Numbered from the stretch's first letter, positions 3,872 through 59,603 are shown. The stretch: 64,000 nucleotides of DNA from Verrucomicrobiota bacterium (GCA_043775015.1 JAYVSV010000047.1:67876-131875); one strand, 5' to 3'. Translations and numbers: made by a program. Notes: a model not told the origin generated them from the sequence alone.

Positions 3872-4831
3872 ATGAAGAAGACTGTCGGCAAAGTGGTCGC
3901 GTCCTCAAACGCGGTCCAAAAGACTCCACGAAAAGCGACCAAGGGACTCATCCATCCCGTGGTCATCTATCCATTCCGGCAGCCAGATGATTACCGGGAC
4001 TTGAAGCAGCTCTACAGTTTGGTTGCGCGGTTGGCGGCGCAACCGGAGACTTACGCACGGCCCATCACCGTGATTGACCGGAAAACCTCCAATCGCATGG
4101 CGGGGAACAAAGTGTTCCTTGATTTCCGAAATCAAACTGTGGCCAAGTACTCTGACGTGCTGGACGCGTGGTGCGTGGACACTTGCCAGATGTGGTATGC
4201 GGGGCTGGGCATGGCTTTTGATCGCGGCGGGCCAGATGATGTTTATTGGTTGATCCCGGGTGATTTCAACTATGGCGATCCCGTGGGGCAGGAGGTGTTG
4301 GGCCGGTTGCACGACCTGCCGGAGATTTGCGCTGAATTGAAGCAGGATGTTTGCATCGGCGAAATCGCGACGGACCACAAAAATCCGAAACAATTGATCG
4401 ACACCTACGGCACGTTCGCGCTGCTCTACACCTGGTTTCCAAGTGAAGCCAGTGAAATTCGCGAATACACGGAAAGACCTCGAAGCGAGTTTTTCGCTAT
4501 TCAGCACGATTTCTTGCGTGAAATGCTAAACCGGCGCTGGTTCGCCTATGAGCAGACGATGGTGATCTTGTTGCAGGCTGTGTTCAGCCGGAAAAGGATC
4601 TCTCGTTTCTTTGTGGGAAACATTTCCGATCTGCCAGAAGGACGAGAGAGCCTGGCCTCGGCGATGCAACAAGTGGAACGGACCGAACGTGTCCTCAAAA
4701 CGCTGTGGCGCGAACGCCAGGGCGAGCAGGCCGAATGGAGCAAACAGTATCGTCTCCTTGAGAGCCAATCCGAGCAGGTTCGTTGCACGGCATTGACGCT
4801 GTTGGAAAACCTTTTGAATCGTCCAGTATGA
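3872..4831 (+). CDS. Hypothetical protein (319 aa), no family assigned
   Basis: A long ORF whose stop overlaps the next gene's start (ATGA at 4828-4831). I recognise no motif with confidence. ATG at 3872 is preferred. Confidence 0.6.
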   Translation: MKKTVGKVVASSNAVQKTPRKATKGLIHPVVIYPFRQPDDYRDLKQLYSLVARLAAQPETYARPITVIDRKTSNRMAGNKVFLDFRNQTVAKYSDVLDAWCVDTCQMWYAGLGMAFDRGGPDDVYWLIPGDFNYGDPVGQEVLGRLHDLPEICAELKQDVCIGEIATDHKNPKQLIDTYGTFALLYTWFPSEASEIREYTERPRSEFFAIQHDFLREMLNRRWFAYEQTMVILLQAVFSRKRISRFFVGNISDLPEGRESLASAMQQVERTERVLKTLWRERQGEQAEWSKQYRLLESQSEQVRCTALTLLENLLNRPV

Positions 4832-8668: not shown

Positions 8669-10912
8669 TTAGTTTCGGGCTTGTTCAGTGGAGTTGATTT
8701 GTGCTGCTTTCTTCGGGGCTTCGACTGGAGCCACAGCTGGAGCGACAGTCGCCCCTGTGGCCTTGATGTCGGTTCCGAGCCGTTGTAGGTAGGCGATCAA
8801 GGCGATGATCTCCTTGTCAGATTCGGCTTTCACAGAACCTGTGGCCAGGTTCTGCACGACCTTCGCGGATTGAGCTTGAAGCTCCTTCCCGGCGATTTGT
8901 TCGTAACCGGCTGGATAGGGGACGCCAACTTTGCGCAAGGCACCGATGCGTGCGGGCAACGAACTCGTGTCGAGCTTTTGCGTCAGCAACCACGAGTAAC
9001 GCGGCATGATCGAACCGGGCGAAGTGGTGCGCGGATCGTCCATGTGGTTGTAGTGCCACGCGTCCGGATACTTGCCGCCGATCCGGTGCAGGTCTGGTCC
9101 GGTGCGCTTGGAACCCCAGAGGAAAGGATGGTCGTAAACGAATTCGCCAGACTTAGAGTAGTCGCCGTAGCGTTCGGTCTCTGAACGGAATGGGCGGATC
9201 ATCTGCGAGTGGCAGCCGACGCAACCTTCGCGGATATACAGGTCGCGTCCCAATACTTCCAATGGGGTATAGGGCTTCACGCTCGATATGGTCGGAACGT
9301 TTTCTTTGATCAGATACATCGGAACGATTTCAATTGCTCCACCGATGAGTACGGCGACGAGCGCGAGGCCGGTGAGCAGGAGCGGCTTGCCTTCGAGCGT
9401 GCGGTGGCCCCATGGATTTTTACTTTCGCCATGGGGTTTTTGAGCGCGGAGCGGTGCGGCTTGCGCTTCCGTCTCCGGTTGGAACACGCCGCTCTTGGCC
9501 GTTTTCCAGAGGTTAAACGCCATCAGGAAAGCGCCAATGATGTAGAGCGAACCACCGACGGCGCGCAGTTGATACATCGGAATCAGATTGAGAACGGTCT
9601 CAAGAAAGTTGGGGTATTGCAGGAAACCATCGGCGGTGAATTGTTTCCACATCAGACCCTGTGTGATGCCGCTCCAATACATCGGGATCACGTAAAACAC
9701 CATTCCCAGCAGCGCGATCCAGAAGTGGTAGTTCGCGAGCTTGATGGACCAGAGGTTGGTGTTGTAGAGGCGCGGAAAAAGCCAGTAGAGCATCGAGAAG
9801 GTGAAGAAACCGTTCCAGCCGAGTGCACCGGTGTGAACGTGCGCGATGGTCCAGTCCGTGTAATGCGAAAGTGAGTTGACGCTCTTGATCGCGAGCATCG
9901 GCCCTTCAAGCGTTGCCATGCCGTAAGCGGTCAACGCGACGACCATGAACTTAAGCATCGGATCTTGGCGAACCTTATCCCACGCGCCGCGCAAGGTGAG
10001 GAGGCCGTTCAACATGCCGCCCCACGACGGCGCGATGAGCATGATGGAGAAAACCATGCCGAGCGATTGCGCCCAGTCGGGCAATGCCGTGTAGAGCAGG
10101 TGATGCGGCCCGGCCCAGATGTAGATGAAGATCAAGGCCCAGAAGTGAATGATCGAGAGCCGATACGAGAACACCGGACGATTGGCCGCCTTGGGTAGAA
10201 AGTAATACATCAACCCGAGGTAAGGGGTGGTGAGGAAGAACGCGACGGCGTTATGCCCATACCACCATTGCACGAGCGCATCCTGCACTCCGGCGTAAAT
10301 CGAATAGCTTTTGAAAGCGGTCGCCGGAACTTCCATCGAGTTGATGATGTGCAACACCGCCACCGTCAGTGCCGTCGCAATATAAAACCAGATCGCAACG
10401 TAGAGATGTTTTTCGCGCCGCTTCAATATGGTGCCGATCAAATTGACCGTGAACACGACCCAGACGAGCGCGATGGCGATGTCGATGGGCCATTCGAGTT
10501 CCGCGTATTCCTTGCTCGTCGTCAAGCCGAGCGGCAGCGTGACTGCTGCCGCGACGATGATCGCGTTCCAACCCCAAAAATTGATCCAGCTCAACCTGTC
10601 ACAGAACATCCGCGCTTTGCACAGACGCTGGAGCGAATAATAAATTCCCATGAACATGCCGTTGCCGACGAAGGCGAAGATCACGGCGTTTGTGTGCAGT
10701 GGCCGCAGTCGTCCGAACGAGACGAACTGAAGGTTGAGGTTTGCTTCCGGCCAGAAGAGTTGCACGGCTGCCAGCAACCCGGCGCTCATTCCCACGAGGC
10801 CCCAGATGACGGTGGCAATCGCGAAGGCGCGAACGATTCGGTTGTCGTATCGAAATGTTTCTATGGTGGTTTGGGATCCTCCAGATTCTGGAGCAATGGT
10901 TTCTCTGTTCAT
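8669..10912 (-). CDS. ccoNO: cbb3-type cytochrome c oxidase, fused subunits I and II (CcoN-CcoO)
   Basis: A 12-TM heme-copper oxidase core (..HFWALIFIYIWAGPHHL.., ..IAHVHTGALGWNG..) is followed by a TM helix and the CcoO heme-c site CVGCHSQMIRP. Confidence 0.9.
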   Translation of the reverse strand: MNRETIAPESGGSQTTIETFRYDNRIVRAFAIATVIWGLVGMSAGLLAAVQLFWPEANLNLQFVSFGRLRPLHTNAVIFAFVGNGMFMGIYYSLQRLCKARMFCDRLSWINFWGWNAIIVAAAVTLPLGLTTSKEYAELEWPIDIAIALVWVVFTVNLIGTILKRREKHLYVAIWFYIATALTVAVLHIINSMEVPATAFKSYSIYAGVQDALVQWWYGHNAVAFFLTTPYLGLMYYFLPKAANRPVFSYRLSIIHFWALIFIYIWAGPHHLLYTALPDWAQSLGMVFSIMLIAPSWGGMLNGLLTLRGAWDKVRQDPMLKFMVVALTAYGMATLEGPMLAIKSVNSLSHYTDWTIAHVHTGALGWNGFFTFSMLYWLFPRLYNTNLWSIKLANYHFWIALLGMVFYVIPMYWSGITQGLMWKQFTADGFLQYPNFLETVLNLIPMYQLRAVGGSLYIIGAFLMAFNLWKTAKSGVFQPETEAQAAPLRAQKPHGESKNPWGHRTLEGKPLLLTGLALVAVLIGGAIEIVPMYLIKENVPTISSVKPYTPLEVLGRDLYIREGCVGCHSQMIRPFRSETERYGDYSKSGEFVYDHPFLWGSKRTGPDLHRIGGKYPDAWHYNHMDDPRTTSPGSIMPRYSWLLTQKLDTSSLPARIGALRKVGVPYPAGYEQIAGKELQAQSAKVVQNLATGSVKAESDKEIIALIAYLQRLGTDIKATGATVAPAVAPVEAPKKAAQINSTEQARN

Positions 10913-11100: not shown

Positions 11101-13664
11101 GCAGCCACCTCTAAATTCGTGGACGGCGCAGTTGAACGGCTTGACGCGCTTCGGTCGTTGTGAATTCCTCGACGTTGATTTTCTGATTTGCTGAAAGTGC
11201 GTTTTCCAATCCACGTCGTTGCTCCACAGGCGAAGGCGACCACCGTCGCAGAACTCAGCGGCATCAGAATCGCGCACACTACTGGCGAGAGAAGCCCGCG
11301 CGCGGCAATACTGATGCCCACCAGGTTGTAGATCGTAGAAATCAAAAAGCTGAGGCGAACGATCGTGACCGCGCGCTTCGAGAAGCGGAGTATCTCGTGC
11401 AATTGCGGGACTAGCGTGGCATCCATGATGATGTCGCTCGCCGGTGAAAACGCGCCGATGTTTTCGACCACGGCCACACCGACATCGCTCTGTTGCAATG
11501 CGCCGGAATCGTTCAAGCCATCACCCACCATCATCACGGTTTTTCCGCAACGCTGGCGCGCGTGGATGAATTCTAATTTGTGCAACGGCGATTGATTGAA
11601 TTGCGTGCGGTTGCCGAACATCGCGGCAAAAGTGTCGCGTTGCTTCTCGTTGTCGCCGCTGAGCAGTGCGAGTTCGTAACGGGCGGACAGCGTGCGAACG
11701 AGCGGTTCCACATTCGTTCGCACCGCACTTGCCACCGCAAACGCCCCGCGATAACGCTTATCGATCGCGACGTGAACCAAACTTCCGTGCAACTCCTGTG
11801 GATAACTGGGAGTGGTTTGAATTGGAACGCCGCGCAATTCGAGCCAGGCTGCGGAGCCTAGCAAAACTTCGTTTTCTTCGACGATTCCTTCGATTCCACG
11901 CCCCGCTCCCTCCACAAAGGAGCGCACGGGCGTGATGGAGTTTTGCGCGAGCGATTCAGCCAAACGCACCGACAATGGATGCGTGGATTGTTTGGCGATG
12001 GAGTGAATCCAGATTTGCTCGGCTTCAGAAAGCGGTTCGCCATCGAAGCGAATCGACTGCGCGCCGACTGCGGTCAACGTTCCAGTCTTGTCGAAAACCA
12101 CGGAGTCCACCCGCGCGAGGTCCTCGATGACATTGGCACTTTTCAAAAAAATATTTCTGCGCGCCAAAACGCGTTGTGCGGTTCCGAGCGTGAATGGCGC
12201 GGCCAAGGCCAGCGCGCAGGGACAGGCCACGATCAATACGGATGTAAATGCTTTTAACGAAATAGCTGGATTCTTGAACCACCAGAAAATTGCCGCGCCA
12301 ATCGCGACTGCGATAATGATCTTCGTGAAACGCTGGCTGTAATTATTGGTCAGTGTCTTGAGCGAATCTCCTTTGCCTTTGCGAAACGCTTCCTGATTCC
12401 AGAGCGAAGTCAGGTAACTTTGCGAAAGCGCTTTGACGATTTCGAGTTCGATGGTTCCGCCAACTTGCCGTCCGCCCGCGTAGAGATAATCGCCCGGAGT
12501 TTTTGTCGCAGGTTCAGATTCGCCCGTGACGAAGCTGTAATCGATTACGGCGTCGCCGCCGACGAGTCGTGCGTCGGCTGGGATCAATTCGCCGTTGCGG
12601 ATGAGTAAAAGATCTCCCACGGACAATTGAGCTAACGCGACACGCTCCTCGGTTTCATCGAAGGGATTTCGTCGCGTGACCGAGAGCGGGAAAAACGATT
12701 TGTAGTCGCGATCAAACGCCAGTTGATCGTAAGTCTTCTGTTGGAAAAGTTTTCCGCAGAGCAGGAAGAACAACAAACCGCAGAGCGAATCGAAATAGCC
12801 TTCGCCGCGACCGGACAGAACTTCGTAAACGCTTTGCGCAAACAAAGCGACAATGCCTGCGGCAATCGGCACATCGATATTCAGCATTTTGCCGCGCAAA
12901 CTAGTCCAGGCTGAACGCCAATAATCAGACGCGCTGTAAAAAAAAACCGGCGTCGCCAGCAACAAACTCAGGTAACCAAAAAGCTTTTTAAAAGCGGGAC
13001 CGCTAAAACTGTCCAAACCAAGATAGGACGAAATGCTGAACAGCATGATGTTCCCGAAGGCGAAGCCAGCGATTCCGATTTGCAACCATAACCGTCGCGA
13101 AGCCGGGCTTTTCTTCCGCGCATCGAGATTGGCGAGTTTTAGATCTGGCTCATATCCGAGCGACGTTAACAGTTCGACGACGCGACTGAGCTTTACCTTG
13201 GAATTCTCAAACGTCAGAGCGATTTCTTTGCGCAGAAAATTGACCTGCGATTCACCAATCCCTGGTTGCAACCGGAAAAGATTTTCGAGCAGCCAGACGC
13301 ACGCGATGCAGTGAATCGAAGGGATGCGAAACGTGACACGCGTGATCCGTTCATCGGTGAAATCGACGAGGAGTTGTCGCACGACCGGTTCGTCGAGATA
13401 GCCGAAGGTGTCTGTTTGATTGGCGGGCTTGATGCGGACGCCGACAGAATCGCTGAGTGCGTAGAAATTTTCCAAGCCGTTTTCCGTCAGCAATTCAAAA
13501 ACCGTGAGGCAACCCCCACAGCAAAACGTTTTCTCCTGTTTGGTGAAGAGAGAATCACGACAGTGCGTGCCGCAGTGGAAGCAGGTAATTTCCTGCGCGT
13601 GGCGCGACCGAGGCAACGCGGCTGTTGCTGAGGCCTCAATTTCATTGATTGAATTTACGAACAT
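11097..13664 (-). CDS. ccoI: Heavy-metal (copper) translocating P-type ATPase CcoI/FixI
   Basis: N-terminal CFHCGTHC...FCCGGC, an HMA-like domain with CIACV, then CPCALALAAP, DKTGTLT and GDGLNDSGAL. Confidence 0.9.
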   Translation of the reverse strand: MFVNSINEIEASATAALPRSRHAQEITCFHCGTHCRDSLFTKQEKTFCCGGCLTVFELLTENGLENFYALSDSVGVRIKPANQTDTFGYLDEPVVRQLLVDFTDERITRVTFRIPSIHCIACVWLLENLFRLQPGIGESQVNFLRKEIALTFENSKVKLSRVVELLTSLGYEPDLKLANLDARKKSPASRRLWLQIGIAGFAFGNIMLFSISSYLGLDSFSGPAFKKLFGYLSLLLATPVFFYSASDYWRSAWTSLRGKMLNIDVPIAAGIVALFAQSVYEVLSGRGEGYFDSLCGLLFFLLCGKLFQQKTYDQLAFDRDYKSFFPLSVTRRNPFDETEERVALAQLSVGDLLLIRNGELIPADARLVGGDAVIDYSFVTGESEPATKTPGDYLYAGGRQVGGTIELEIVKALSQSYLTSLWNQEAFRKGKGDSLKTLTNNYSQRFTKIIIAVAIGAAIFWWFKNPAISLKAFTSVLIVACPCALALAAPFTLGTAQRVLARRNIFLKSANVIEDLARVDSVVFDKTGTLTAVGAQSIRFDGEPLSEAEQIWIHSIAKQSTHPLSVRLAESLAQNSITPVRSFVEGAGRGIEGIVEENEVLLGSAAWLELRGVPIQTTPSYPQELHGSLVHVAIDKRYRGAFAVASAVRTNVEPLVRTLSARYELALLSGDNEKQRDTFAAMFGNRTQFNQSPLHKLEFIHARQRCGKTVMMVGDGLNDSGALQQSDVGVAVVENIGAFSPASDIIMDATLVPQLHEILRFSKRAVTIVRLSFLISTIYNLVGISIAARGLLSPVVCAILMPLSSATVVAFACGATTWIGKRTFSKSENQRRGIHNDRSASSRSTAPSTNLEVAA

Positions 13665-27647: not shown

Positions 27648-28511
27648 ATGGCAATTTTTTACGACACACACGCGCATCTCGATTATCCCGAGTTCGAAAA
27701 AGATTTTCCGCAAATCCTCGAACGCGCTCACGCCGCTGGCATCACAAAAATGATTTCCATCGGCACCGATTTGGAAAGCAGCGCGCGGGCGATTGCGCTG
27801 GCGGAAAAATATGATTCCATTTACGCCGTCGTCGGCTGGCATCCGACGAATGTGCTCGAAGCGCCGGACGATATTCGCGAACCGTTGCGCAGATTGGCCT
27901 CGCACCCGAAAGTCGTCGCGATCGGTGAAACCGGTTTGGATTACTATCGTTTGCCCAGTCAGAGCGGCGCGCACGGAGTGACGCGCCCTACCACGACGAC
28001 TGAGGTAGGGCGCGTCACTCCGTGCGCGCCGTCTGCGGAAGATGAAAACTACAAACGCAAACAAGCCGAAATCTTCCGCCAACAAATGGAAGTCGCCGCC
28101 GAATTTGGATTGAACTGCGTGGTTCACCAGCGCGATGCGCTCGAAGACACGATCACGCAAATGCAACCGTTCGTCGGACGTGTGCGCGGCGTTTTCCATT
28201 GTTTCGCGAATGACGCTGCCGCCATGCAACGCATCATCGCGATGGGTTCGCTCGTGAGTTTCACCGGCATTTTGACTTTCAAGAACGGTCAAAACATCCG
28301 CGACACCCTCGCCGCCACGCCGCTCGATCAATTCATGCTGGAAACCGATTGCCCGTATCTCGCGCCGATTCCGTATCGCGGCAAACGTTGTGAGCCGGCT
28401 TACGTGAAAGAAATTTCCGAAGTCGCCGCGCAGGTGAAAAACTGTTCGTTGGAGGAATTAAGCAAAGCGACATGCGCGACGGCGCGGGAGTTTTTTAGGA
28501 AAATATTTTGA
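27648..28511 (+). CDS. tatD: TatD-family metal-dependent hydrolase (DNase)
   Basis: MAIFYDTHAHLDYPEF...GETGLDYYR...VVHQRDA...GVFHCF...SFTGILTFKN...LETDCPYLAP. Confidence 0.9.
   Translation: MAIFYDTHAHLDYPEFEKDFPQILERAHAAGITKMISIGTDLESSARAIALAEKYDSIYAVVGWHPTNVLEAPDDIREPLRRLASHPKVVAIGETGLDYYRLPSQSGAHGVTRPTTTTEVGRVTPCAPSAEDENYKRKQAEIFRQQMEVAAEFGLNCVVHQRDALEDTITQMQPFVGRVRGVFHCFANDAAAMQRIIAMGSLVSFTGILTFKNGQNIRDTLAATPLDQFMLETDCPYLAPIPYRGKRCEPAYVKEISEVAAQVKNCSLEELSKATCATAREFFRKIF
27965..28031. repeat. REP-like palindrome (same family as 3480-3551) embedded in frame in tatD
   Basis: The arms cggcgcgcacggagtgacgcgccctacc and ggtagggcgcgtcactccgtgcgcgccg are translated as GAHGVTRPTTTTEVGRVTPCAP. Confidence 0.85.
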
Positions 28512-28515
28512 ATTA

Positions 28516-28736: not shown

Positions 28737-28939
28737 ACCGCCACAAGGAGAGCATCGAAACGCTCCTTTGGCACGGGAAGCCCGTCGTCTTGCAGAGCCA
28801 GAACGTAACCTTCAATCGCCTCGCGAATATTGGCGATGGCAGCTTCCCGGCTTTCGCCCTGAGAGACGCAACCGGGAAGACTCGGACATTCCGCCACCCA
28901 AAAGCTATCTTCGCCGGGATAGATCATGACCTGTCGCAT
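28733..28939 (-). CDS. hicB: HicB-family antitoxin (UPF0150)
   Basis: MIYPGEDSFWVAECPSLPGCVSQGESREAAIANIREAIEGY. Its stop overlaps the hicA ATG (ATGA). Confidence 0.8.
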   Translation of the reverse strand: MRQVMIYPGEDSFWVAECPSLPGCVSQGESREAAIANIREAIEGYVLALQDDGLPVPKERFDALLVAV

Positions 28940-29000
28940 GTGAAGAAAATAAGCGAGGCCACAGGAAAGCTCAACTTAAACAATTTGTTAGATGGTTGAA

Positions 29001-29181
29001 ATTCATGCTGGAAACCGATTGCCCGTATCTCGCGCCGATTCCATATCGCGGCAAACGATGCGAACCGGCTTACGTGAAAGAAATTTCCGAAGTCGCCGCA
29101 CAGGTGAAAAACTGTTCGCTGGAAGAATTAAGCAAAGCAACGTGCGCAACGGCACGGGAGCTTTTTAGAAAACTTTCCTGA
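29001..29181 (+). pseudogene. Orphan duplicate of the tatD 3' end (last 59 codons plus stop)
   Basis: It aligns base for base with 28331-28511, at roughly nine in ten positions identical by eye. It encodes FMLETDCPYLAPIPYRGKRCEPAYVKEISEVAAQVKNCSLEELSKATCATARELFRKLS. Confidence 0.9.
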
Positions 29182-29209
29182 TTTAAATTCGCTAGTGACC
29201 AAGGCCGAT

Positions 29210-29916: not shown

Positions 29917-29992
29917 CTCACAGACATTCAAAACGTCCTCCAACCGTTTGCCCTTCGATCCAAACCGTTTTGTGGCGCGAAGTCTGGCCGCG
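29917..29992 (-). pseudogene. Orphan remnant of a yggU (DUF167) 3' end
   Basis: It encodes RGQTSRHKTVWIEGQTV... A 42-bp core (29951-29992) is identical to 30239-30280 inside the intact gene. Confidence 0.8.
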
Positions 29993-29997
29993 TTTTT

Positions 29998-30184
29998 ATC
30001 CCGGAGGGATTGCCGAAAATAGCCCGGCGTTTTAACGTCGGGAAATTGTGAGGAAAATAAAAAAGTCCCGAAGGGACGGCTGACGCTTGCCGCGCGTTTT
30101 CGTCCGTCCCTTCGGGACTAACTTCCTTTGGTGAATTGACCCGGCGTTAAAACGCCGGGCTATTCTCAAATGTCCCTCCGGGAC
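29998..30184. mobile_element. MITE-like nested-palindrome element of about 190 bp (same family as 2912-3124)
   Basis: atcccggagggat ... aatagcccggcgttttaacg ... gtcccgaagggac / gtcccttcgggac ... cgttaaaacgccgggctatt ... gtccctccgggac. Confidence 0.8.
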
Positions 30185-30196
30185 TTGTGGAATTAT

Positions 30197-30496
30197 CTAC
30201 TTGGATTTTAGGTCGGTCAAAACTTCCTCAACTGTTTTCCCTTCGATCCAAACCGTTTTGTGGCGCGAAGTCTGGCCGCGCACGATTTGGATTCTGCCGC
30301 GAGAACAATTCAACTTTTCGGCAAGCAAATCGACCAGAGCCTGATTCGCGGCGGCATCGACGGGCGGCGCGGTCACTTTGATTTTTAATTCGTCGCCGAG
30401 CGGTGCGCCGATTTCGTTGGTCGAAGCGCGCGGCTGCAATTTCACGGCGAGATAAACTCCGTTGGCGTGCAGGCGAATGAAACCGGGTTGCGACAT
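30197..30496 (-). CDS. yggU: DUF167 (YggU) family protein
   Basis: MSQPGFIRLHANGVYLAVKLQPRASTNEIG...LKIKVTAPPVDAAANQALVDLLAEKL...IQIVRGQTSRHKTVWIEG. Only the last 99 codons of the 312-aa track ORF are credible. Confidence 0.85.
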   Translation of the reverse strand: MSQPGFIRLHANGVYLAVKLQPRASTNEIGAPLGDELKIKVTAPPVDAAANQALVDLLAEKLNCSRGRIQIVRGQTSRHKTVWIEGKTVEEVLTDLKSK

Positions 30497-32669: not shown

Positions 32670-33002
32670 TCACGACTCCAACAGGCGATCGGCTGGCGGA
32701 GCGGGCGGGTTTTTCTTTCGCATCGAAACAACGAGCGCAACGCATCCCGTCCACGTCGGCAGCATATCGGCAACAGGAATAAATTCCACGGCAAACGTCG
32801 GCAACAGCAACCAGTGAAAGCCGAGCAGCGCGATTTCGAGAATCATCGCGATGACATCGATGATTTCGTCAAAGAATGTCCAGCCAAGCGGGCCAAGCAA
32901 TAATTGTAATCCGTCGGCAACAACGGCAACGGCGAACGCGAGGCCGATGCGGAGCGGGGTGAGGCGACGAGGTTGAAAAATTTTTAAGCCGCGGACATTC
33001 AT
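32670..33002 (-). CDS. Hypothetical membrane protein (110 aa)
   Basis: It has three hydrophobic segments and no recognised family. Confidence 0.5.
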   Translation of the reverse strand: MNVRGLKIFQPRRLTPLRIGLAFAVAVVADGLQLLLGPLGWTFFDEIIDVIAMILEIALLGFHWLLLPTFAVEFIPVADMLPTWTGCVALVVSMRKKNPPAPPADRLLES

Positions 33003-33008
33003 TCGTGG

Positions 33009-36011: not shown

Positions 36012-36890
36012 ATGAATGAGCCGATCGCATTTTTAACCTTCGCGCTAATTGGCGTCACATGCTGGATTTCGTACCTTGGATTCAAGAGCGCCGCTTTCGA
36101 ACGGAAATACATCTTTTGCCCGGAGAATATTCTCAGGCACAAAGAATATTACCGGCTGATCAGTTCAGGTTTTTTACACGCCGACTGGCAGCATCTTTTT
36201 TTCAACATGCTGAGCCTCTATTTTTTTGGAGAGGCGATTGAACTTTATTTCGGGAGACTGATTCTCCTGGTCATTTATTTCGCGGCCATCGTCGGAGGGA
36301 ATCTCCTTTCATTGTATCTCCACCGCCATCACGACTACCTTGCTTACGGAGCGTCGGGCGGAGTTTGCGGGGTGATTTTCGCGCACATTTTTTTGTTTCC
36401 CGGGGGAAGTATTTCGAGTGGCTTGCTTCCGATTTTCATTCCATCCTGGCTCTACGCGGTTCTGTTTATGGCTGGATCGTTCTACCGGATGAAGACGCAA
36501 AAGGACAACATCGGCCATGACGCTCATCTGGGCGGCGCGATCATTGGATTATTTACCACCGCAGCACTAAAACCCGGGATCATCGGCCAAAGTCCTTACC
36601 TGTTTCTGACGATTACACTCGGATCCATCCTGCTGTTCGTTTATCTCGCAAAGAATCCGATGTTCCTCCCGCTGGCGCACGTGATGTCGATGCCGAAACG
36701 GAAATCGCTTTTCAAAATGTTTTCGAAGTCACGGCCGAAAAACTTTCAGGTGGACGCGCTGCTCGAGAAAATTGCCGGGAAAGGAATTCACAGTCTGACC
36801 AAAGAAGAGCACGCCTTCCTCAGCGGCGTTTCGGACAAATACAAAAGACGGGCGGAATCCAAGAAGCCCAAGTCCGGGTTGATCATTTAA
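36012..36890 (+). CDS. Rhomboid-family intramembrane serine protease
   Basis: ..RLISSGFLHADWQHLFFNM.., the catalytic GASGGVCGV, and HLGGAIIG. Confidence 0.85.
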   Translation: MNEPIAFLTFALIGVTCWISYLGFKSAAFERKYIFCPENILRHKEYYRLISSGFLHADWQHLFFNMLSLYFFGEAIELYFGRLILLVIYFAAIVGGNLLSLYLHRHHDYLAYGASGGVCGVIFAHIFLFPGGSISSGLLPIFIPSWLYAVLFMAGSFYRMKTQKDNIGHDAHLGGAIIGLFTTAALKPGIIGQSPYLFLTITLGSILLFVYLAKNPMFLPLAHVMSMPKRKSLFKMFSKSRPKNFQVDALLEKIAGKGIHSLTKEEHAFLSGVSDKYKRRAESKKPKSGLII

Positions 36891-37029
36891 CATCGCAGTC
36901 CCTTTGTTTCGGACTGATATGTGGTCTGACTTTCCCCAGAGCGATGTTCTGGTGTAATTCTTCAAGGATTAACGCGAGATGAGAACCAAGATTTTTCTTT
37001 TGAGTCAAGCAACTGCGGTAGATTGAAAC

Positions 37030-40000
37030 TTAGGGTACAACTAATATACGATAGTAGCGTTGTTCTGTAGCGCCCGCTAAAGGATCCACTTTGTAGCCGG
37101 ATTCGTCCGTCGCTGTCACATCTCCGTCGAGGTTGGTCCACGTTGGATCGGACACGGTTGCTTTAAACTGGACCCGATATGTTTTGCCGGAAACAGCACT
37201 CCAGAAAATCTGCACCGGTCCAGACTGAGGCGATGAGAGTGTGATAACCCGCAGAATGGAGCCAGCGTTGGTCGGGTCTGTTCCTGCTTGGAACTCCGCT
37301 GCGTCCGTTAGTCCGTCTTCGTCGTAATCACTGGTGCCATCGCGTTGAAGACCGTTGAAGTAGGCCAATTCCCAATCATCTGGGAGTCCGTCGTGATCAG
37401 AGTCAGAACGACTTAGCCGCAGAACCATGACATCCCGGGAATCGTTATAGTCGCCGCCTGTGGTCAGATCCGTAGCGTAGGTTTCGAAAAGCACGGTGCT
37501 CCCGTCCATGCTGATCACCGGATTGCCTGAAAACCGATTGCCAGTTCCGGATCCGCCCCGGTTGATGCTCAGGAGAATAGTGCGGTTCAAGACCAGATCC
37601 CGCAGAAAAACATCACTCAGTCCGTTCGTATCGTTCGCGACCAGGTTTGAGGCACGACTCCGGAAGATCACGTAACGTCCGTCTGGGGTGAGCAAAGGGG
37701 AAAGCGACCGGTCGTTCCCGGCTCCTGTGCCATTTTGATTGACGCTCACGAGTGATGCTTGTCCGTTCGTTCGATCAATGAGATATACATCCGTAGTCAG
37801 GTTGGTATCCAAAACTGAATAGCTTTTGCTCCGCTCGCAGGCTACGAATCGTCCATTTGGGCTTAAGACAACGTTGACCGCATCAGTGAGAGTCGTAAGT
37901 GAACTTTTACTCGCCACATCAAACAATAAAGTGTTCGTCCGGCGCTCCAAGGCGATCAAAGTATCGTTGGCCGCAAAGGTGGGATCCCGAGTGATAGAAT
38001 TGGGGCCGCTTGAGCCGCCTACAAAAAAATTCGACGAAGATACGGAGTCCCAAAGGAAAGCAGAAGTGGAGCTAGCATTTAAGTTGGTAACCAAGGCCGA
38101 ATTGCCACTTCCAAGATAGGTTACATAACGTCCGTCAAGACTGATAGCAGCATTGTATGAGGCGTACGATCCTGCCGCTGTCCCCTGATAATTTCGGCTG
38201 ACCAGTCGATTAGTTTCTTGAGCCATATCCCGATAGTAAATCTGCCCGACGGTAGTGGCATAACCGCCCACCCCTGTTTCGCTACTTTGAAAGGCCAGGA
38301 AGTTACCCTGTTGACTAAACACCGGCAGCGACGGCGCGCTAACCTTTCCAACGCCGGCAATCAACACATTCGTCTGCGCTAAACGGTCGAAAGTGTATAA
38401 ATTGAAACGGGTTCCCAACCCTGCCAATGGCGTGCTGTCAGGAATCGCTTCGAACGCAACCCACCGCCCATCACTGCTTATGACTGGGCGGCGTGATGGA
38501 CCGCGCGAGAAACCGTTGAGGATTGTATTGAGCCGAATCCAACTATTTGAACCTGCATTGAGGTCACCGATCATCACGTCGCTATCCCGGTTTGTATCTC
38601 CGGAGCTGAGGTCGGAAGCATAACTTTCCAGGACGATGAATTGGCCATTGGAACTGACGCCGCCGGAAGTCAGTCGACTCGAAGCCGCCCCGGTGTTCAC
38701 ATTCAGGCTCGGTTCACGCACGGAAATTAGTTCAGTAATTCCACTTAGCCGGTCAAAGAGATAAATGTTTCGGGTTCCGTTCGCTTCCGGCGCACCAATG
38801 AATGCAATCCAAAGTCCGTTGTCCGTCATCGTCGCGTCCGTTACAGGCGTGTTCGTTGTCACCGTCGTATTGGTGCCAGCGACTGCGTCGAAGAGCATCA
38901 GGTTTTTGGCCGAGTCTTGATAAAGCAGAAACCGCCCGTCGGATGAAAGGACCGGAACGAAATTTAAGATCGGTCCGGCGCTGTTTACCTGTGCAACTCT
39001 ATAAGCAATCAGGGTCGTCGTTCCAGTCGTGAGATCACGTCGAAAAAGGTCGGCTCCAGATGAATTCGTGTCGTATTGCACCAGATTGTTGGACGAACTT
39101 GAGAAAACCACCACACTACCTTGCCTGCTCAAAACCGGAGATCCAGAACCGGAGGCGGAGTTGACTCCAGTGGCATTCACACTGACTAGGGTTGTTGTGC
39201 CGAGTAGGTTATCCCGCAGGAATATGTCCAGCTCGGTGTTTAGGTCGTTGGTGGTGAGGTTCGACGCAGCGCTTTGAAATGCCACATAACGTCCGGTGCT
39301 GTCTGCGGAGGGGTTTTGCGAATCGCCATTGCCCAATGTGCCACCCGCACTGACACTGACCGCTAGATTCGATGAGCTTTGGAGGTCGCGAATAAACACA
39401 TCGAGTTTCGCGTTTAAATCTCCTGCAACCAAATTCGCCGCCAAACTTTGGAACGTCACCCATCTCCCGTCATCGCTGATCTGTCGGTTACCGGCCCAAA
39501 CCACGGAGGTTCCGGCAAAACTGGAGGTGTTATCTGATTTTCGAGTCACAAGCAGGGTGGTTGCAGAGCTCGTATCCCGAACGAATAAATCAACGGCGTT
39601 GTTTAAATCATTTGCTGCGAGGTTGCTCGACTGGCTGGCAAAAAGCACGTAACGTCCGTCGGGCGTCATGTCGGGTGCGCTCGAATCAAGGTTTCCTGGG
39701 CCTACACCATTGGTATCGACGCTCACCAACGTAGTGGTTCCAGCAACGAGGTCTCGAAGGAAAATATCGGAAGCGTTGTTCGTGTCGTTTGGAACGAGAT
39801 CACTCGAGGTGCTTTCGAAAACGACGAACTGACCGTTGGAACTAATCGTAGGCGAATGCGATGCGCCGTTTCCGCTTTTTGTTCCAGTTGCATTCACGCT
39901 GACCAGGACTGTTTTGGAGAGCAGGCGATCCCGCACAAAAATGTCGAACGCACCATTGTTGTCGTTCGTGACCAGATTATCCGCCGTGCTGACAAAAACC

Positions 40001-40161
40001 ACGAAACGGCCATTTGCACTCACGCCGGGATTATGGCAGTCGCTCGCAGATCCTGACGACAAAGCCACGGGCGAAATTAGTGAATCGACTAATGCATTCG
40101 CCAAGATGGAGGTGGCGATGCTCATTGAGGTTAACAGAAATGCGAGGTAGCCAATCTTCAT
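37030..40161 (-). CDS. Large secreted repeat protein: about 16 PD40/TolB-like beta-propeller repeats, thrombospondin-type-3-like Ca-binding repeats, and a C-terminal ...RYYRILVVP domain
   Basis: A signal peptide, and by my count about 16 copies of (S/T).(D/N)G(R/Q)(F/Y/W)V.F.S.A.NLV..D.N...D(I/V/L)F(V/L)RD. Then DSDHDGLPDDWE...DYDEDGLTDAAEFQAGTDP. The ATG at 40161 is preferred. Confidence 0.8.
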   Translation of the reverse strand: MKIGYLAFLLTSMSIATSILANALVDSLISPVALSSGSASDCHNPGVSANGRFVVFVSTADNLVTNDNNGAFDIFVRDRLLSKTVLVSVNATGTKSGNGASHSPTISSNGQFVVFESTSSDLVPNDTNNASDIFLRDLVAGTTTLVSVDTNGVGPGNLDSSAPDMTPDGRYVLFASQSSNLAANDLNNAVDLFVRDTSSATTLLVTRKSDNTSSFAGTSVVWAGNRQISDDGRWVTFQSLAANLVAGDLNAKLDVFIRDLQSSSNLAVSVSAGGTLGNGDSQNPSADSTGRYVAFQSAASNLTTNDLNTELDIFLRDNLLGTTTLVSVNATGVNSASGSGSPVLSRQGSVVVFSSSSNNLVQYDTNSSGADLFRRDLTTGTTTLIAYRVAQVNSAGPILNFVPVLSSDGRFLLYQDSAKNLMLFDAVAGTNTTVTTNTPVTDATMTDNGLWIAFIGAPEANGTRNIYLFDRLSGITELISVREPSLNVNTGAASSRLTSGGVSSNGQFIVLESYASDLSSGDTNRDSDVMIGDLNAGSNSWIRLNTILNGFSRGPSRRPVISSDGRWVAFEAIPDSTPLAGLGTRFNLYTFDRLAQTNVLIAGVGKVSAPSLPVFSQQGNFLAFQSSETGVGGYATTVGQIYYRDMAQETNRLVSRNYQGTAAGSYASYNAAISLDGRYVTYLGSGNSALVTNLNASSTSAFLWDSVSSSNFFVGGSSGPNSITRDPTFAANDTLIALERRTNTLLFDVASKSSLTTLTDAVNVVLSPNGRFVACERSKSYSVLDTNLTTDVYLIDRTNGQASLVSVNQNGTGAGNDRSLSPLLTPDGRYVIFRSRASNLVANDTNGLSDVFLRDLVLNRTILLSINRGGSGTGNRFSGNPVISMDGSTVLFETYATDLTTGGDYNDSRDVMVLRLSRSDSDHDGLPDDWELAYFNGLQRDGTSDYDEDGLTDAAEFQAGTDPTNAGSILRVITLSSPQSGPVQIFWSAVSGKTYRVQFKATVSDPTWTNLDGDVTATDESGYKVDPLAGATEQRYYRILVVP

Positions 40162-40186
40162 ATTTAGTTTTCCCTCAAGCAGTTCA

Positions 40187-40987
40187 CTACTTAAGATATG
40201 CGGCTGCGGCTTGGATGCGGGCCACATCAGGATTATTTGGTGATGCGACGTTTAGGAAAATTTGCGCCCCTATAGGAAGCATAGTTCTGGGGTCGGACCA
40301 CTGCCAATATTCGATATGTCCGTCGGCCATGGAAAGATTAGCTCCGCCGAGATGAAAGGAACCTGGATAATCCACTAAGCTTTCTTCTGGGGCGTTGGTA
40401 AAAAACTCTGCATCGTTGATGCTATTGGGATGCTCGTCTAGGAACACGAACATGCGACCTGGCTGAGAGATTTCAGAAATTTTAGTCATACTTCGGTAAT
40501 TCTGGCCCCATTGTGAGCCTGTAGATCCCATAAACGCATTCATTGAATAGCTTCGCACTCGCAGTTTCGGAACTCCCCCAATCAGCAGAGTGGATGGATC
40601 AGCAGGGCATCGAAACAGCGATGAGGAATTCACATAAGGTCCGATGGCCGCGTAAGTCGCGTTCGTCAAATTCAAGGTGTTGGTATTGGCAGAATTCGAA
40701 ACATTAAAGTCTATGTTGCCGCTAACCCATGGTTTATTATTAGATCCCAAAGAGTTGGAAATGAGGTTGCCGGAATAATCATCAGAATACATGTGCCAGG
40801 CGACCATCAAGCGGCTGAGGTTATTGGCGCATCGTGCCCGGTCTGCGGATGTTTGACTGTGGGCCAACCCGTTCAAAGAGAGCAGCCCCAACAGGGTTAC
40901 AACGGTCAGCACGACTAAAAGTTCAATGAAAGTGAATGCAGGCTGATTCCTCCGATCATTCCTCGCTGCGGCCCAAAGTGGATTCAT
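40187..40987 (-). CDS. Prepilin-type N-terminal cleavage/methylation domain protein (DUF1559-like)
   Basis: PAFTFIELLVVLTVVTLLGLL, and a C-terminal GGANLSMADGH. It lies 25 bp upstream of the PD40 gene on the same strand. The ATG at 40987 is preferred. Confidence 0.8.
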   Translation of the reverse strand: MNPLWAAARNDRRNQPAFTFIELLVVLTVVTLLGLLSLNGLAHSQTSADRARCANNLSRLMVAWHMYSDDYSGNLISNSLGSNNKPWVSGNIDFNVSNSANTNTLNLTNATYAAIGPYVNSSSLFRCPADPSTLLIGGVPKLRVRSYSMNAFMGSTGSQWGQNYRSMTKISEISQPGRMFVFLDEHPNSINDAEFFTNAPEESLVDYPGSFHLGGANLSMADGHIEYWQWSDPRTMLPIGAQIFLNVASPNNPDVARIQAAAAYLK

Positions 40988-41073
40988 GGAGCGACACTGG
41001 GTTAACATGCCTCTGAGGTCAATTCGAAAATCAGGTGAAAACCTGGCCAATACGTGAGTGTTTTGGCGGCGAA

Positions 41074-41183
41074 AGGAATTCACAGTTTAACCAAAGAAGA
41101 GCACGCCTTCCTCAGCGGCGTTTCCGACAAGTACAAAAGACGGGCGGAATCCAAGAAACCGGAATCCAAGTTGGTCATTTGAA
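41074..41183 (+). pseudogene. Orphan duplicate of the rhomboid gene 3' end (last about 36 codons plus stop)
   Basis: It aligns with 36781-36890 and encodes GIHSLTKEEHAFLSGVSDKYKRRAESKKPESKLVI*. The intact gene ends ...KKPKSGLII*. Confidence 0.9.
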
Positions 41184-41262
41184 GCCGAACTGAAACCGGT
41201 TCGCTCGTCTTATCTCTGACTTGTTCTTGACCCGACTCAAATTCCGCTCACAAATTAATCCC

Positions 41263-42381
41263 ATGAACTATTTCTCTAAAGCGTCGTTCGCCGCACTTCC
41301 AACTAAAGGTCGCGCGCGAATTTTTCTTTTGCTCAGTCTGCTGGTGGTGCTTTCGGTGGTCTCCGGTTGCGCGACGCGTTCGGGAACGTTCGCCCCTCGC
41401 CAGGGTGATGAAATCATCGTGGCCGGAAAAATGGTTCACACCGGGACGCGGGTTGTGACCTGGATGGACCCGGGTGGCTACGACGCCTATCGCACCGAGC
41501 GCCGCTTTGCACCGTTCGAGGAATCCGACTTCACGATTTCAAAGGAAAAGGTTGCCGACCTCAAGTCGCCTAGTCGTTTCAATTTGCGCAAAGCGGGGCT
41601 TTCGCCGGAAGAAATCGAGCGCGTCCGCGGCGGTGGTTGGGATTTGCCATTGTTGCAACGGGTGGTGGATCAATTCGTATTGCACTTCGACGTTTGTGGA
41701 ACGAGTCGCCAATGTTTCAACATACTGCACGATCATCGCGGGCTAAGCGTTCATTTCATGCTCGATGCGGATGGGACAATTTATCAAACGCTCGATTTGA
41801 AAGAGCGCGCCTATCATGCGACCAGTTCCAACACCCGCTCGGTGGGGATCGAAATCGCCAACATCGGCGCTTACAGTTCCAAGGAAAATGACCCGTTCGA
41901 GCAATGGTATAAAAAGGAACCGAACGGCCAGACTACGTTGATCTTCCCTGGAAAATTCGTGGGAACGAACCGCTTCTACACTCCGAAGTTTGTTGGGCAT
42001 CCCGCGCGTCCCGAGCCTGTCGTTGGAACTGTGCAGGGACACGAGATGCGCCAGTACGATTACACCCCGCAACAGTATGAAGCGCTGGTGAAATTGACCG
42101 CAACGTTGTGCAAAGTCTTCCCAAAACTAAAATGTGATTATCCGCGTGATGCGGAAGGGAAACTGGTCACCAAGAAACTCGCTGACGATGAGCTGAGCAA
42201 CTATCAGGGCGTTCTCGGGCACTACCACATCCAGACCAACAAAACCGATCCCGGCCCGGCCTTGCAATGGGACTATCTGATTCAAAATGCGCGACAAATT
42301 CTGGAGCCAGCCAGTAATGTTCGCGCCGCGACGATGCAAATGGAAAACCGTTTTCCGAAAAAATTATCCGTTGGAAAATAG
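41263..42381 (+). CDS. N-acetylmuramoyl-L-alanine amidase / peptidoglycan-recognition (Amidase_2) family lipoprotein
   Basis: A lipobox-like LSVVSGC, plus VLHFDVCGTS...VHFMLDADGTIYQTLDLKERAYHA...SVGIEIAN and VLGHYHI...KTDPGP. Confidence 0.8.
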   Translation: MNYFSKASFAALPTKGRARIFLLLSLLVVLSVVSGCATRSGTFAPRQGDEIIVAGKMVHTGTRVVTWMDPGGYDAYRTERRFAPFEESDFTISKEKVADLKSPSRFNLRKAGLSPEEIERVRGGGWDLPLLQRVVDQFVLHFDVCGTSRQCFNILHDHRGLSVHFMLDADGTIYQTLDLKERAYHATSSNTRSVGIEIANIGAYSSKENDPFEQWYKKEPNGQTTLIFPGKFVGTNRFYTPKFVGHPARPEPVVGTVQGHEMRQYDYTPQQYEALVKLTATLCKVFPKLKCDYPRDAEGKLVTKKLADDELSNYQGVLGHYHIQTNKTDPGPALQWDYLIQNARQILEPASNVRAATMQMENRFPKKLSVGK

Positions 42382-42406: not shown

Positions 42407-42772
42407 ATGCGCCGGCGCACGTTCCGAAAGCTGAAAACGGCGGGCGAATCAGGCTTTCACCACCATGTCTATGTGGTGCTGCTTGATCCCAGGGCGGCAA
42501 AGAATCGTAAAATCATCGCTGCCAACCCGAAGCGGGATCGAAGCAAGCCTTGTGTTTATGTGGGGATGACCGGGCTTACCCCGGAGCAACGGTTTCAGAA
42601 TCACAAGAGAGGAATCAAGGCTGCCAGTATGGTGCGGCGCTTTGGGATCCATTTGCTACCTGAGCTATTCGAGTTCCTCAATCCAATGCCGTTCGATGCT
42701 GCACTTGCCATGGAGCGGGAGCTGGCCGAAGAACTGCGCGAGGCTGGTTACACCGTGGCAGGGGGAACCTAG
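42407..42772 (+). CDS. Small hypothetical protein, tentatively GIY-YIG-like
   Basis: HVYVVLL...CVYVGMTGLTPEQRFQNHKRG resembles the GIY...YIG...R..H layout, but the spacing is atypical. Tentative. Confidence 0.35.
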   Translation: MRRRTFRKLKTAGESGFHHHVYVVLLDPRAAKNRKIIAANPKRDRSKPCVYVGMTGLTPEQRFQNHKRGIKAASMVRRFGIHLLPELFEFLNPMPFDAALAMERELAEELREAGYTVAGGT

Positions 42773-42774
42773 TG

Positions 42775-42848
42775 ATTCGCGGGCTGGCGCGCGTGTGCCT
42801 TACGCGGCGGTGTCGGAGTAGGTTGTTCCATGCGTCACGCACGCTCCA
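42775..42848 (+). repeat. 74-bp repeat, copy A (direct repeat upstream of the giant gene)
   Basis: attcgcgggctggcgcgcgtgtgccttacgcggcggtgtcggagtaggttgttccatgcgtcacgcacgctcca is nearly identical to 59530-59603. Confidence 0.9.
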
Positions 42849-59416: not shown

Positions 59417-59529
59417 TGATTTTTGTGGCCAGCTTTGTCTTGCAACGAAAATTCATTCCCCGGTTCTTAGGTTGAGCGATCTGAGTGAGGATTCGCTTCT
59501 CTTCACCCACTCTATTAATTATTTTAGTC

Positions 59530-59603
59530 ATTCGCGGGCTGGCGCGCGTGTGCCTTACGCGGCGGTGTCGGGGTGGGTTGTTCCATGCGTCTCTCACGCT
59601 CCA
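59530..59603 (+). repeat. 74-bp repeat, copy B (direct repeat downstream of the giant gene)
   Basis: Same sequence as 42775-42848 apart from a handful of substitutions, and in the same orientation. Confidence 0.9.

Follow-up and report, generated by a model that had tools for sequence, protein, structure and literature searches.

We analysed a window of 64,000 nucleotides (nt) from a Verrucomicrobiota bacterium (contig positions C47:67876-131875 of the assembly G000, a metagenome-assembled genome (MAG) of 4.39 Mb in 206 contigs), in which the 3′ end of a gene for a rhomboid-family intramembrane protease occurs twice, on either side of two genes of the opposite strand. Comparison with relatives indicates that one old event put an acquired two-gene operon between the rhomboid gene and the amidase gene that formerly followed it, and that the downstream copy of the gene end is the leftover of the resident rhomboid gene. 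The same layout, an intact gene tail followed by cargo genes and then by a second, diverged tail (hereafter called a scar), was found at 16 loci in G000. We lean towards the explanation that one-sided homologous recombination with the DNA of a relative displaced the resident rhomboid 3′ end. The parts of the locus are as follows.

36012 to 36890, plus strand: intact gene for a rhomboid-family intramembrane protease of 292 amino acids (aa) (Pfam PF01694, E = 9e-29; DUF6576, PF20216)
36771 to 36890, plus strand: copy A, the working last ~38 codons and TAA stop of the rhomboid gene, contiguous with the gene body
36891 to 37029, no strand assigned: 139-bp spacer where the rhomboid and PD40 genes converge, part of the insert and dissimilar to native downstream DNA
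37030 to 40227, minus strand: open reading frame (ORF) of 1065 aa for a secreted protein with PD40 and bacterial TSP3 repeats (Pfam PD40, TSP3_bac)
40187 to 40987, minus strand: prepilin-like gene of 266 aa, the first of the two-gene operon (Pfam N_methyl and DUF1559/SBP_bac_10)
40988 to 41062, no strand assigned: 75-bp upstream region of the prepilin-like gene, the 5′ end of the cassette up to the joint with copy B
41063 to 41183, plus strand: copy B, the displaced, non-functional 3′ relic of the rhomboid gene, ~38 codons and a TGA stop, in the native position before the amidase gene
41115 to 41385, no strand assigned: hyperdivergent patch in the comparison of G000 with contig L213, running from the 3′ third of copy B through the amidase promoter and signal peptide
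41263 to 42381, plus strand: gene for an N-acetylmuramoyl-L-alanine amidase lipoprotein (Pfam Amidase_2)

A repeat search and alignment of the window gave a direct repeat of 115 nt with 89% identity (36774-36888 and 41066-41180). By eye, the match extends from about 36771/41063 through the stop codons at 36888-36890 (TAA) and 41181-41183 (TGA), and it falls on the C-terminal DUF6576 part of the rhomboid protein. A search of the whole 4.39-Mb assembly returned exactly two copies, the second at E = 2e-37, so the match is neither due to chance nor part of a dispersed repeat family. Over 38 codons, Nei-Gojobori-type counts gave 8 synonymous and 5 non-synonymous differences between the copies, and the encoded proteins end in ...KKPKSGLII* (copy A) and ...KKPESKLVI* (copy B). 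A preliminary description of this DNA had noted that the rhomboid 3′ end recurs downstream in the same orientation and with its stop codon, that the two tails show several synonymous changes and these different last residues, and that everything between them lies on the opposite strand. All of this was confirmed, both intervening ORFs being on the minus strand.

The supposition in the preliminary description that the rhomboid gene was once followed directly by the amidase gene is supported by five relatives with this adjacency. They are the same-genus genome G006 (L034), an NCBI MAG contig (L080) with genes for TonB_C, a TonB receptor, rhomboid and amidase in this order, and three metagenome contigs (L081-L083). 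Amidase orthologs were present in 9/9 genomes of the genus, and the site upstream of them varied further: the TonB receptor gene directly precedes the amidase gene in G005 and G008, a homologue of the gene at 32694-33008 of the window does so in L085 and L086, and only a remnant of the rhomboid tail does so in G002. On these comparisons, the ancestral order was TonB receptor, rhomboid, amidase. The G002 locus (L033; G002:C77, 8028-8120) is without the TonB receptor and the rhomboid gene, and its tail of ~90 nt before the amidase gene carries an in-frame TAG, has its boundary 27 nt inside that of copy B, and has 4 nucleotide states in common with copy B of G000.

The DNA that follows each copy indicates which of the two stayed in place. 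The sequence TTCTTGACC follows copy B, as it follows the single tails at the empty sites, but does not follow copy A; this promoter-like motif lies at 41224-41232 upstream of the amidase gene and is conserved across the genus. In shuffling tests, the sequence after copy B was similar to native post-rhomboid DNA (p <= 0.0005), while the 139-bp spacer after copy A showed no significant similarity to the relatives' native post-rhomboid DNA or to the DNA after copy B (p = 0.20-0.97). Copy B, rather than copy A, thus holds the native context. A duplication that reached past the stop codon into intergenic DNA was also considered and was rejected, as the homology there was not significant. The longest amidase ORF opens at a TTG at 41221, and we placed the probable real start at the ATG at 41263, which gives a lipoprotein signal peptide, because the motif at 41224-41232 is conserved and the ATG of the relatives aligns with that position.

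Copy A is joined to an intact gene whose product has the same length as thousands of homologues (292 aa), and copy B is a non-functional, decaying leftover of the rhomboid end. In the metagenome contig L213, the relic homologous to copy B has a 1-nt deletion in addition to H→Y and G→S substitutions, and the relic in contig L214 has I→T, H→Y and H→Q substitutions within the conserved IHSLTKEEH motif. The identity between G000 and L213 is 55-70% in 41115-41385, yet 95-99% from 41410 on, and this patch was probably imported by later recombination (or is hypervariable). It includes the 3′ third of copy B, which accounts for the odd last residues of that copy in G000 and makes it unsafe to date the event from G000 copies A and B alone.

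The operon between the copies looks horizontally acquired. No ortholog of either gene was found in the 8 other genomes of the genus, where the best matches were partial and had 33-44% identity. The same adjacent pair is present in G013, which belongs to another family of the same order, with 72% (PD40) and 64% (prepilin-like) aa identity to the pair in the window and 70% nucleotide identity over 37105-40958. The prepilin-then-PD40 order also occurs at five subdivision-3 MAG loci (L164-L167, L171), and the pairing was seen in at least 6 other Verrucomicrobiota genomes. Among G000 ORFs of similar length, the synonymous codon choice of both cassette genes was atypical (PD40 gene, 0.7th percentile, z = -2.9; prepilin-like gene, 3.4th percentile, z = -2.2), and that of the TonB receptor, rhomboid and amidase genes was not (60th, 31st and 62nd percentiles, respectively). 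The expectation that the cassette would differ in composition from its neighbours therefore stood for codon usage and failed for GC content. In 500-nt windows the GC fraction was 0.47-0.56 within the cassette and 0.47-0.56 in the flanks, contrary to the impression that the cassette is more AT-rich; third-position GC was somewhat low in its two genes (0.55 and 0.51, against a genome mean of 0.60 +/- 0.07).

The gene identities given in the preliminary description agree with our Pfam results. The prepilin-like gene is of the DUF1559 type, and its homologues of 265-273 aa give alignments that begin at the same ATG. The probable start of the PD40 gene, M23 at 40161, yields the 1043-aa PD40/thrombospondin-repeat protein that had been described, with a signal peptide, and a repeat-period analysis gave about 15-16 units of ~58 aa, in line with the 16 repeats counted before. 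A scan for promoters and terminators of the locus stayed at chance level except for one terminator-like hairpin at 36936-36952, inside the 139-bp spacer. Across 39800-40900, in the prepilin-like gene and the stretch for the N-terminal part of the PD40 protein, identity to L213 is 80-89%, against 95-99% for the flanking genes, which suggests diversifying selection or allele exchange in this surface-protein operon.

Both junctions of the cassette were found outside G000. The left junction, with TonB receptor, rhomboid, tail A, spacer and PD40 gene in order, is present in five ENA metagenome contigs from different samples (L075-L079; 94.5-96.3% identity), in which tail A, the identically arranged 139-bp spacer and the PD40 gene are together kept at ~95% nucleotide identity. 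The right junction, with amidase, tail B, prepilin-like and PD40 genes, is present in L213 (89%) and L214 (84%) with its boundary unchanged. These two contigs also keep the 75-bp stretch upstream of the prepilin-like gene and its joint with copy B, which argues for a single ancestral event. A scan of JGI metagenome contigs based on the amidase returned no relative above 83% aa identity and hence no right-junction data, but it yielded L085 and L086 with their different gene before the amidase. In addition, a Logan contig with 100% identity crosses the cassette from within copy B to within copy A. Taken together, the junction sequences point to a single ancestral insertion that was inherited by lineages now differing by up to about 16% here.

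The rhomboid locus is one case of a recurrent scar without a screened recombinase in or near the insert. Self-comparison of G000 gave 144 short-range direct repeat pairs as the starting set. From these we took pairs whose gene-proximal copy ends within 12 nt of the stop codon of an ORF of at least 120 aa and whose other copy lies downstream. The pattern was found in 23 pairs at 16 loci, with anchor genes on either strand. Control sets with shifted coordinates gave a mean of 2.8 pairs (maximum 7), and the reversed orientation gave 2 pairs. The anchors include the genes for rhomboid, tatD, thrS, hisF, an aldehyde dehydrogenase (aldH), a DeoC aldolase, a molybdopterin oxidoreductase, a radical-SAM enzyme and others. 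The cargo consists mostly of toxin-antitoxin modules (PIN, HicA, PemK/MazF, RelE-like), together with surface proteins and an IS200-like gene. At every inspected scar the similarity stops 0-7 nt past the stop codon, and the relic has its stop in the same place.

Pooled over the 16 loci, the proportion of differing sites between intact and relic tails was 0.311 at synonymous sites (pS; 149/479) and 0.041 at non-synonymous sites (pN; 66/1621), a ratio of 0.13. For a tail copied on the spot and then drifting neutrally, we estimate a ratio of ~0.55, the mean of one constrained and one neutral lineage. Most of the divergence would thus have arisen while both tails belonged to working genes of different lineages, since a predominance of synonymous differences is expected for alleles of two lineages and not for an on-the-spot copy. 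The preliminary description had called the rhomboid repeat a duplication; the two copies are real, and on-the-spot copying as the process is probably wrong in view of this genome-wide ratio.

The homologous cassette of G013 is itself bracketed by a direct repeat of 79 nt with 90% identity (L074 = G013:C30, 7520-7598 / 11663-11741), which consists of the last 26 codons and the stop of the upstream FG-GAP gene, with the relic beginning 3 nt past the PD40 stop. The cassette at L165 lies within a perfect repeat of 130 nt (4034-4163 / 9296-9425); this repeat ends 13 nt short of the prepilin ATG and contains a promoter-like TTGACC...TAAGTT.

Several other scars have individual features. The window holds a second one, a direct repeat of the tatD 3′ end (28330-28515 / 29000-29185; 186 nt, 90%) around a ~480-bp insert containing hicA, with Sd 14.2 and Nd 6.8 and Pfam matches to TatD_DNase and HicA. 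Behind thrS (C173:458-14100) there are 4-5 relics of the thrS 3′ end of 57-362 nt, some with indels, and the cargo between them comprises an IS200-like gene, a Rieske-type gene and three surface proteins of ~720-800 aa with FYRL-like C-terminal ends. The hisF locus (C118:192-2450; L217-L222) has two relic tails (257 nt, 88%; 158 nt, 83%) with a PIN toxin gene between them, and a paralogous PIN gene lies within a similar scar on contig C140. The hisF site is empty in G004, and G007 has the distal relic and part of the cargo in common with G000. Two unrelated scars (C72:~12890-12915 and C101:~28840-28865) have a common motif of ~24 nt, GTAGCAGCCGAGG(A/T)GACGAGGCTC, just past the anchor stop, which may represent a small repeat element or a terminator family.

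In the explanation towards which we lean, DNA of a diverged relative in which the cassette already lay behind the rhomboid gene would have paired with the resident chromosome by homology on the rhomboid side only. The far end, without a homologous partner, would have been joined illegitimately inside the resident rhomboid gene at about codon 253. This outcome could be reached, for instance, if a break in the chromosome was repaired on one side by homologous invasion and on the other by Ku-type end joining. Rather than being replaced, the resident 3′ end would then have been pushed downstream by the incoming rhomboid end, with the copy A allele, and the cassette. Such products would survive because rhomboid and amidase both stay intact. 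The amidase promoter would be lost with joints placed further downstream, and joints far upstream would make long, unstable repeats; these constraints would bias the survivors toward short relics. The same process would explain the at least 15 other scars in G000, where addiction to the toxin-antitoxin modules would oppose loss of the cargo by recombination between the tails.

Several observations are consistent with one-sided recombination. Tails of the A type (L075) and the B type (L213) differ by 6 synonymous and 2 non-synonymous changes and 1 frameshift. At two fixed differences between the copies (TTA versus CTG and GAA versus GAG), the outgroup state is in copy B both times. G000 encodes putative machinery for DNA uptake, ComEC (PF03772, E = 5e-60), and for end joining, Ku (PF02735, E = 2e-46). 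Features of a dedicated integration system were sought and not found. The cassette ends have no terminal inverted repeats (the best pair, 24 nt with 71% complementarity, is at chance level), no k-mer is common to 20 junction pairs, and the left boundary at the rhomboid locus is fuzzy (TTGCCGGGAAAGG versus TTGGCGGCGAAAGG). The insert holds just the prepilin-like and PD40 genes, with no integrase or transposase in the Pfam scan. None of the 9 tyrosine-recombinase matches (PF00589) in the genome lies on a contig that bears any of the 16 scars, a screen that did not cover serine and other recombinase families. The repeats are also unlike those of integron cassettes, as they are gene tails derived from coding sequence and not attC-like imperfect palindromes, with no integrase nearby.

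Other observations weigh against one-sided recombination. No clear microhomology was seen at 41062/41063 or at the other joints, for which the original recipient sequence was not at hand. The donor arrangement, a rhomboid gene followed by the cassette without a relic, was not found in genomes of the genus, GTDB representatives or metagenome contigs, in which close relatives are thinly sampled. The first adjacency of rhomboid gene and cassette is thereby pushed back to an unobserved genome. Copies A and B are each other's closest relatives when compared with all empty-site sequences, which leaves the allele argument thin at the rhomboid locus. The fixed A/B differences common to the lineages number about 3, all synonymous, and part of the divergence between A and B in G000 stems from the later recombination patch. 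The sharp end of similarity at the stop codons is not predicted by random illegitimate joining and would fit equally well long-lived mobile units whose gene tail serves as attachment site, moved by some recombinase or by a Campbell-type crossover. Finally, the evidence of the rhomboid locus by itself would be compatible with an in-situ duplication. Allele divergence under purifying selection is supported genome-wide and is only suggestive at this locus alone.

A site-specific integration of the e14 or phage 21 type, in which an element brought its own tail (copy A), displaced copy B, and had its integrase lost or supplied in trans, is an explanation that we consider unlikely. The topology of the locus equals that of icd, e14 and icdC in Escherichia coli K-12 (PMC13626634), the boundary lies exactly at the stop codon, and the tandem relic arrays behind thrS and hisF resemble accretion at an attachment site. 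However, no integrase was found in the 4.2-kb insert or on any contig with the 16 scars, for which tyrosine recombinases were screened. Each of at least 10 different target genes would need its own specificity, and the junctions have no common core motif. Moreover, relic lengths at one anchor (thrS) vary from 57 to 362 nt, and one cassette family is found at two different anchor genes in opposite relative orientation.

We also give a low probability to a Campbell-type integration, in which a circle with ~120 bp of rhomboid tail and the cassette entered by a single RecA crossover, making both copies hybrids of donor and recipient. Such a circle could come from recombination between tail and relic in the donor or from end joining of an incoming fragment, and Ku would be available for the circularisation. 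This process gives exactly a direct repeat of the homologous segment around the insert. It also accounts for the synonymous-biased divergence, for the seeding of other loci by one scarred locus, and for the near-identical left boundaries of some successive relics (within 5 nt at aldH and within 6 nt on C140). In contrast, the two codons TTA/CTG and GAA/GAG, which lie near opposite ends of the repeat, have the outgroup state in B and the derived state in A, as would fit a resident B and a foreign A, although only two codons are concerned. In addition, the first linkage of tail and cargo is left unexplained, and DNA taken up by transformation is delivered as linear single strands.

An in-situ long target duplication appears quite improbable. 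It would require a staggered break past the rhomboid stop with ~120 bp filled in, so that the copies were identical at birth. At this locus A and B are sisters, with about 10 derived states in common when compared with G006, L080, L081 and G002, and they are estimated to have differed little when the insertion took place. Long target duplications of variable length are made by IS1634. Against this, the pN/pS ratio pooled over 16 loci, 0.13, lies well under the ~0.55 of neutral relic drift, and before the strain split the constrained A lineage has more changes than the free B lineage. The insert is also without a transposase and without terminal inverted repeats, and a random staggered cut would not always end at a stop codon.

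It is very doubtful that copy B was kept for a function, whether as a DUF6576-like mini-protein of ~40 aa or as DNA that regulates the divergently oriented prepilin and amidase promoters. Its rhomboid frame is open from 41039 to 41182 (47 open codons, with possible GTG and TTG starts), copy B sits in the divergent promoter region between the prepilin-like and amidase genes, and few changes in G000 are unique to it. Against a function, however, are the frameshift in L213, the substitutions of conserved residues in L214 and the stop codon in G002. As a mini-ORF it has no Pfam match, and neither strand folds into an unusual RNA (z = -0.6 and +0.1 relative to shuffled sequence). As a conserved mini-ORF, copy B was ruled out by the frameshift and the substitutions in the relatives. 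Finally, an assembly artefact, a chimeric contig fused at the repeat, has a negligible probability: the source is a 206-contig MAG and the independent unitig L215 stops inside both repeats, so assemblers branch there, but independent assemblies of both junctions exist in at least 7 other contigs (84-96% identity), which come from different samples, and a chimera formed via the repeat would yield one hybrid tail and not two diverged ones.

The scar resembles known systems in part. As with the cryptic prophage e14 and phage 21 at icd, a housekeeping gene keeps an intact 3′ end on one side of the insert, and a displaced copy of that end with its stop codon lies on the other; recombination between the copies would excise the insert. 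In E. coli K-12, the changes that separate the pseudogene icdC, displaced by e14, from icd are mainly synonymous or conservative (PMC13626634). The rhomboid copies likewise differ mostly by such changes, and the gene is still functional. Hill et al., in 1989, reportedly located e14 in the 3′ end of icd in E. coli K-12. Unlike e14, which has its own integrase and a defined attachment core, the insert at the rhomboid locus consists of two cargo genes without a recombinase, and in G000 many different genes of one genome are scarred without a common core motif.

Displaced 3′ ends are also known from rhs and type VI secretion system (T6SS) loci, for which homology-facilitated illegitimate recombination (HFIR) has been proposed (Kirchberger et al. 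2017, PMC5361080). In these arrays and those of contact-dependent inhibition (CDI) systems, as in G000, homology is anchored in the conserved upstream part of a gene, a new 3′ end with cargo pushes the old end downstream, repeated events pile up orphan ends as they do behind thrS and hisF, and no recombinase is involved. Arrays of C-terminal displacement at rhs loci were reportedly described by Jackson et al. in 2009. The rhs/CDI/T6SS systems displace a variable toxin tip and carry its immunity gene as cargo. In G000, by contrast, the scars lie at ordinary conserved genes, the protein tail encoded by the incoming end is the same as that of the displaced end, and the cargo has no relation to the anchor gene.

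HFIR in natural transformation is said to have been characterised by de Vries and Wackernagel (2002), Prudhomme et al. (2002) and Meier and Wackernagel (2003). The scar has in common with it a one-sided homologous anchor combined with an illegitimate joint, and the integration of foreign DNA without mobile-element functions. Laboratory HFIR usually deletes recipient DNA beside the anchor, whereas the joint at the rhomboid locus lies upstream of the anchor end and a relic of recipient DNA was left; this bias towards retention may come from selection that favours intact flanking genes.

Tycheposons are islands that target tRNA genes and carry partial target copies. In such tRNA and tmRNA islands the cargo arrays are interrupted by incomplete repeats of the target's 3′ end, as in the scars of G000, but the islands rely on dedicated integrases and have RNA genes as targets. 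Repeated partial target copies are also found in the ssrA islands of Dehalococcoides (PMC3146451). By analogy, the scar may be regarded as a variant of gene-3′-end displacement and HFIR, both of which are known, and as an integrase-free version of the icd/e14/icdC structure.

It is unresolved how chromosomes gain small accessory modules in the absence of mobile-element genes, and in 2026 a study of 80 chromosomal toxin-antitoxin systems still called their integration unclear (PMC13617665). At the rhomboid locus one can see the site both empty and filled, the two junctions, the decay of the relic, and a foreign homologue of the cassette with a like scar at another gene. The finding of 16 such loci, 8-fold over controls and with a pN/pS of 0.13, makes the scar more than an isolated curiosity: it is a pattern whose mechanism can be tested. 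We tentatively raise the possibility that in these Verrucomicrobiota the 3′ ends of ordinary, conserved genes serve as portable attachment sites without a recombinase. Units of gene tail and cargo would move from one related genome to another via RecA-anchored recombination and end joining, would displace resident tails into arrays such as those at thrS and hisF, and would persist mainly when the cargo resists loss (toxin-antitoxin modules) or is under diversifying selection (surface proteins). If true, chromosomal toxin-antitoxin modules and surface-protein genes would have a general route of acquisition that has not been described so far. If more widespread, the scar would be a marker of one-sided recombination that can be read from sequence alone and counted in any genome, with the divergence of the donor open to estimation, and it would explain why toxin-antitoxin modules are so frequently located right behind conserved genes.

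Two other direct repeats were noted in the window. A 79-nt repeat with 94% identity (42770-42848 / 59525-59603; only two copies genome-wide) brackets a giant gene of 5458 aa. Its first copy starts exactly at the stop codon of a GIY-YIG-like ORF and runs into non-coding DNA, which is opposite to the scar pattern. Neither this repeat nor a giant gene after GIY-YIG was found in any of the 10 relative loci examined, and the repeat folds no better than shuffled sequence. No Rfam match was obtained within 36-42 kb of the window. A second repeat (29941-29992 / 30229-30280; 52 nt, 96%) flanks a palindromic element with arms at 29999-30042 and 30140-30183. The latter arm (30140-30185) matches the Rfam family Acido-Lenti-1 RNA with 45 bits, and this 'sRNA' family may thus be a small mobile or repeat element.

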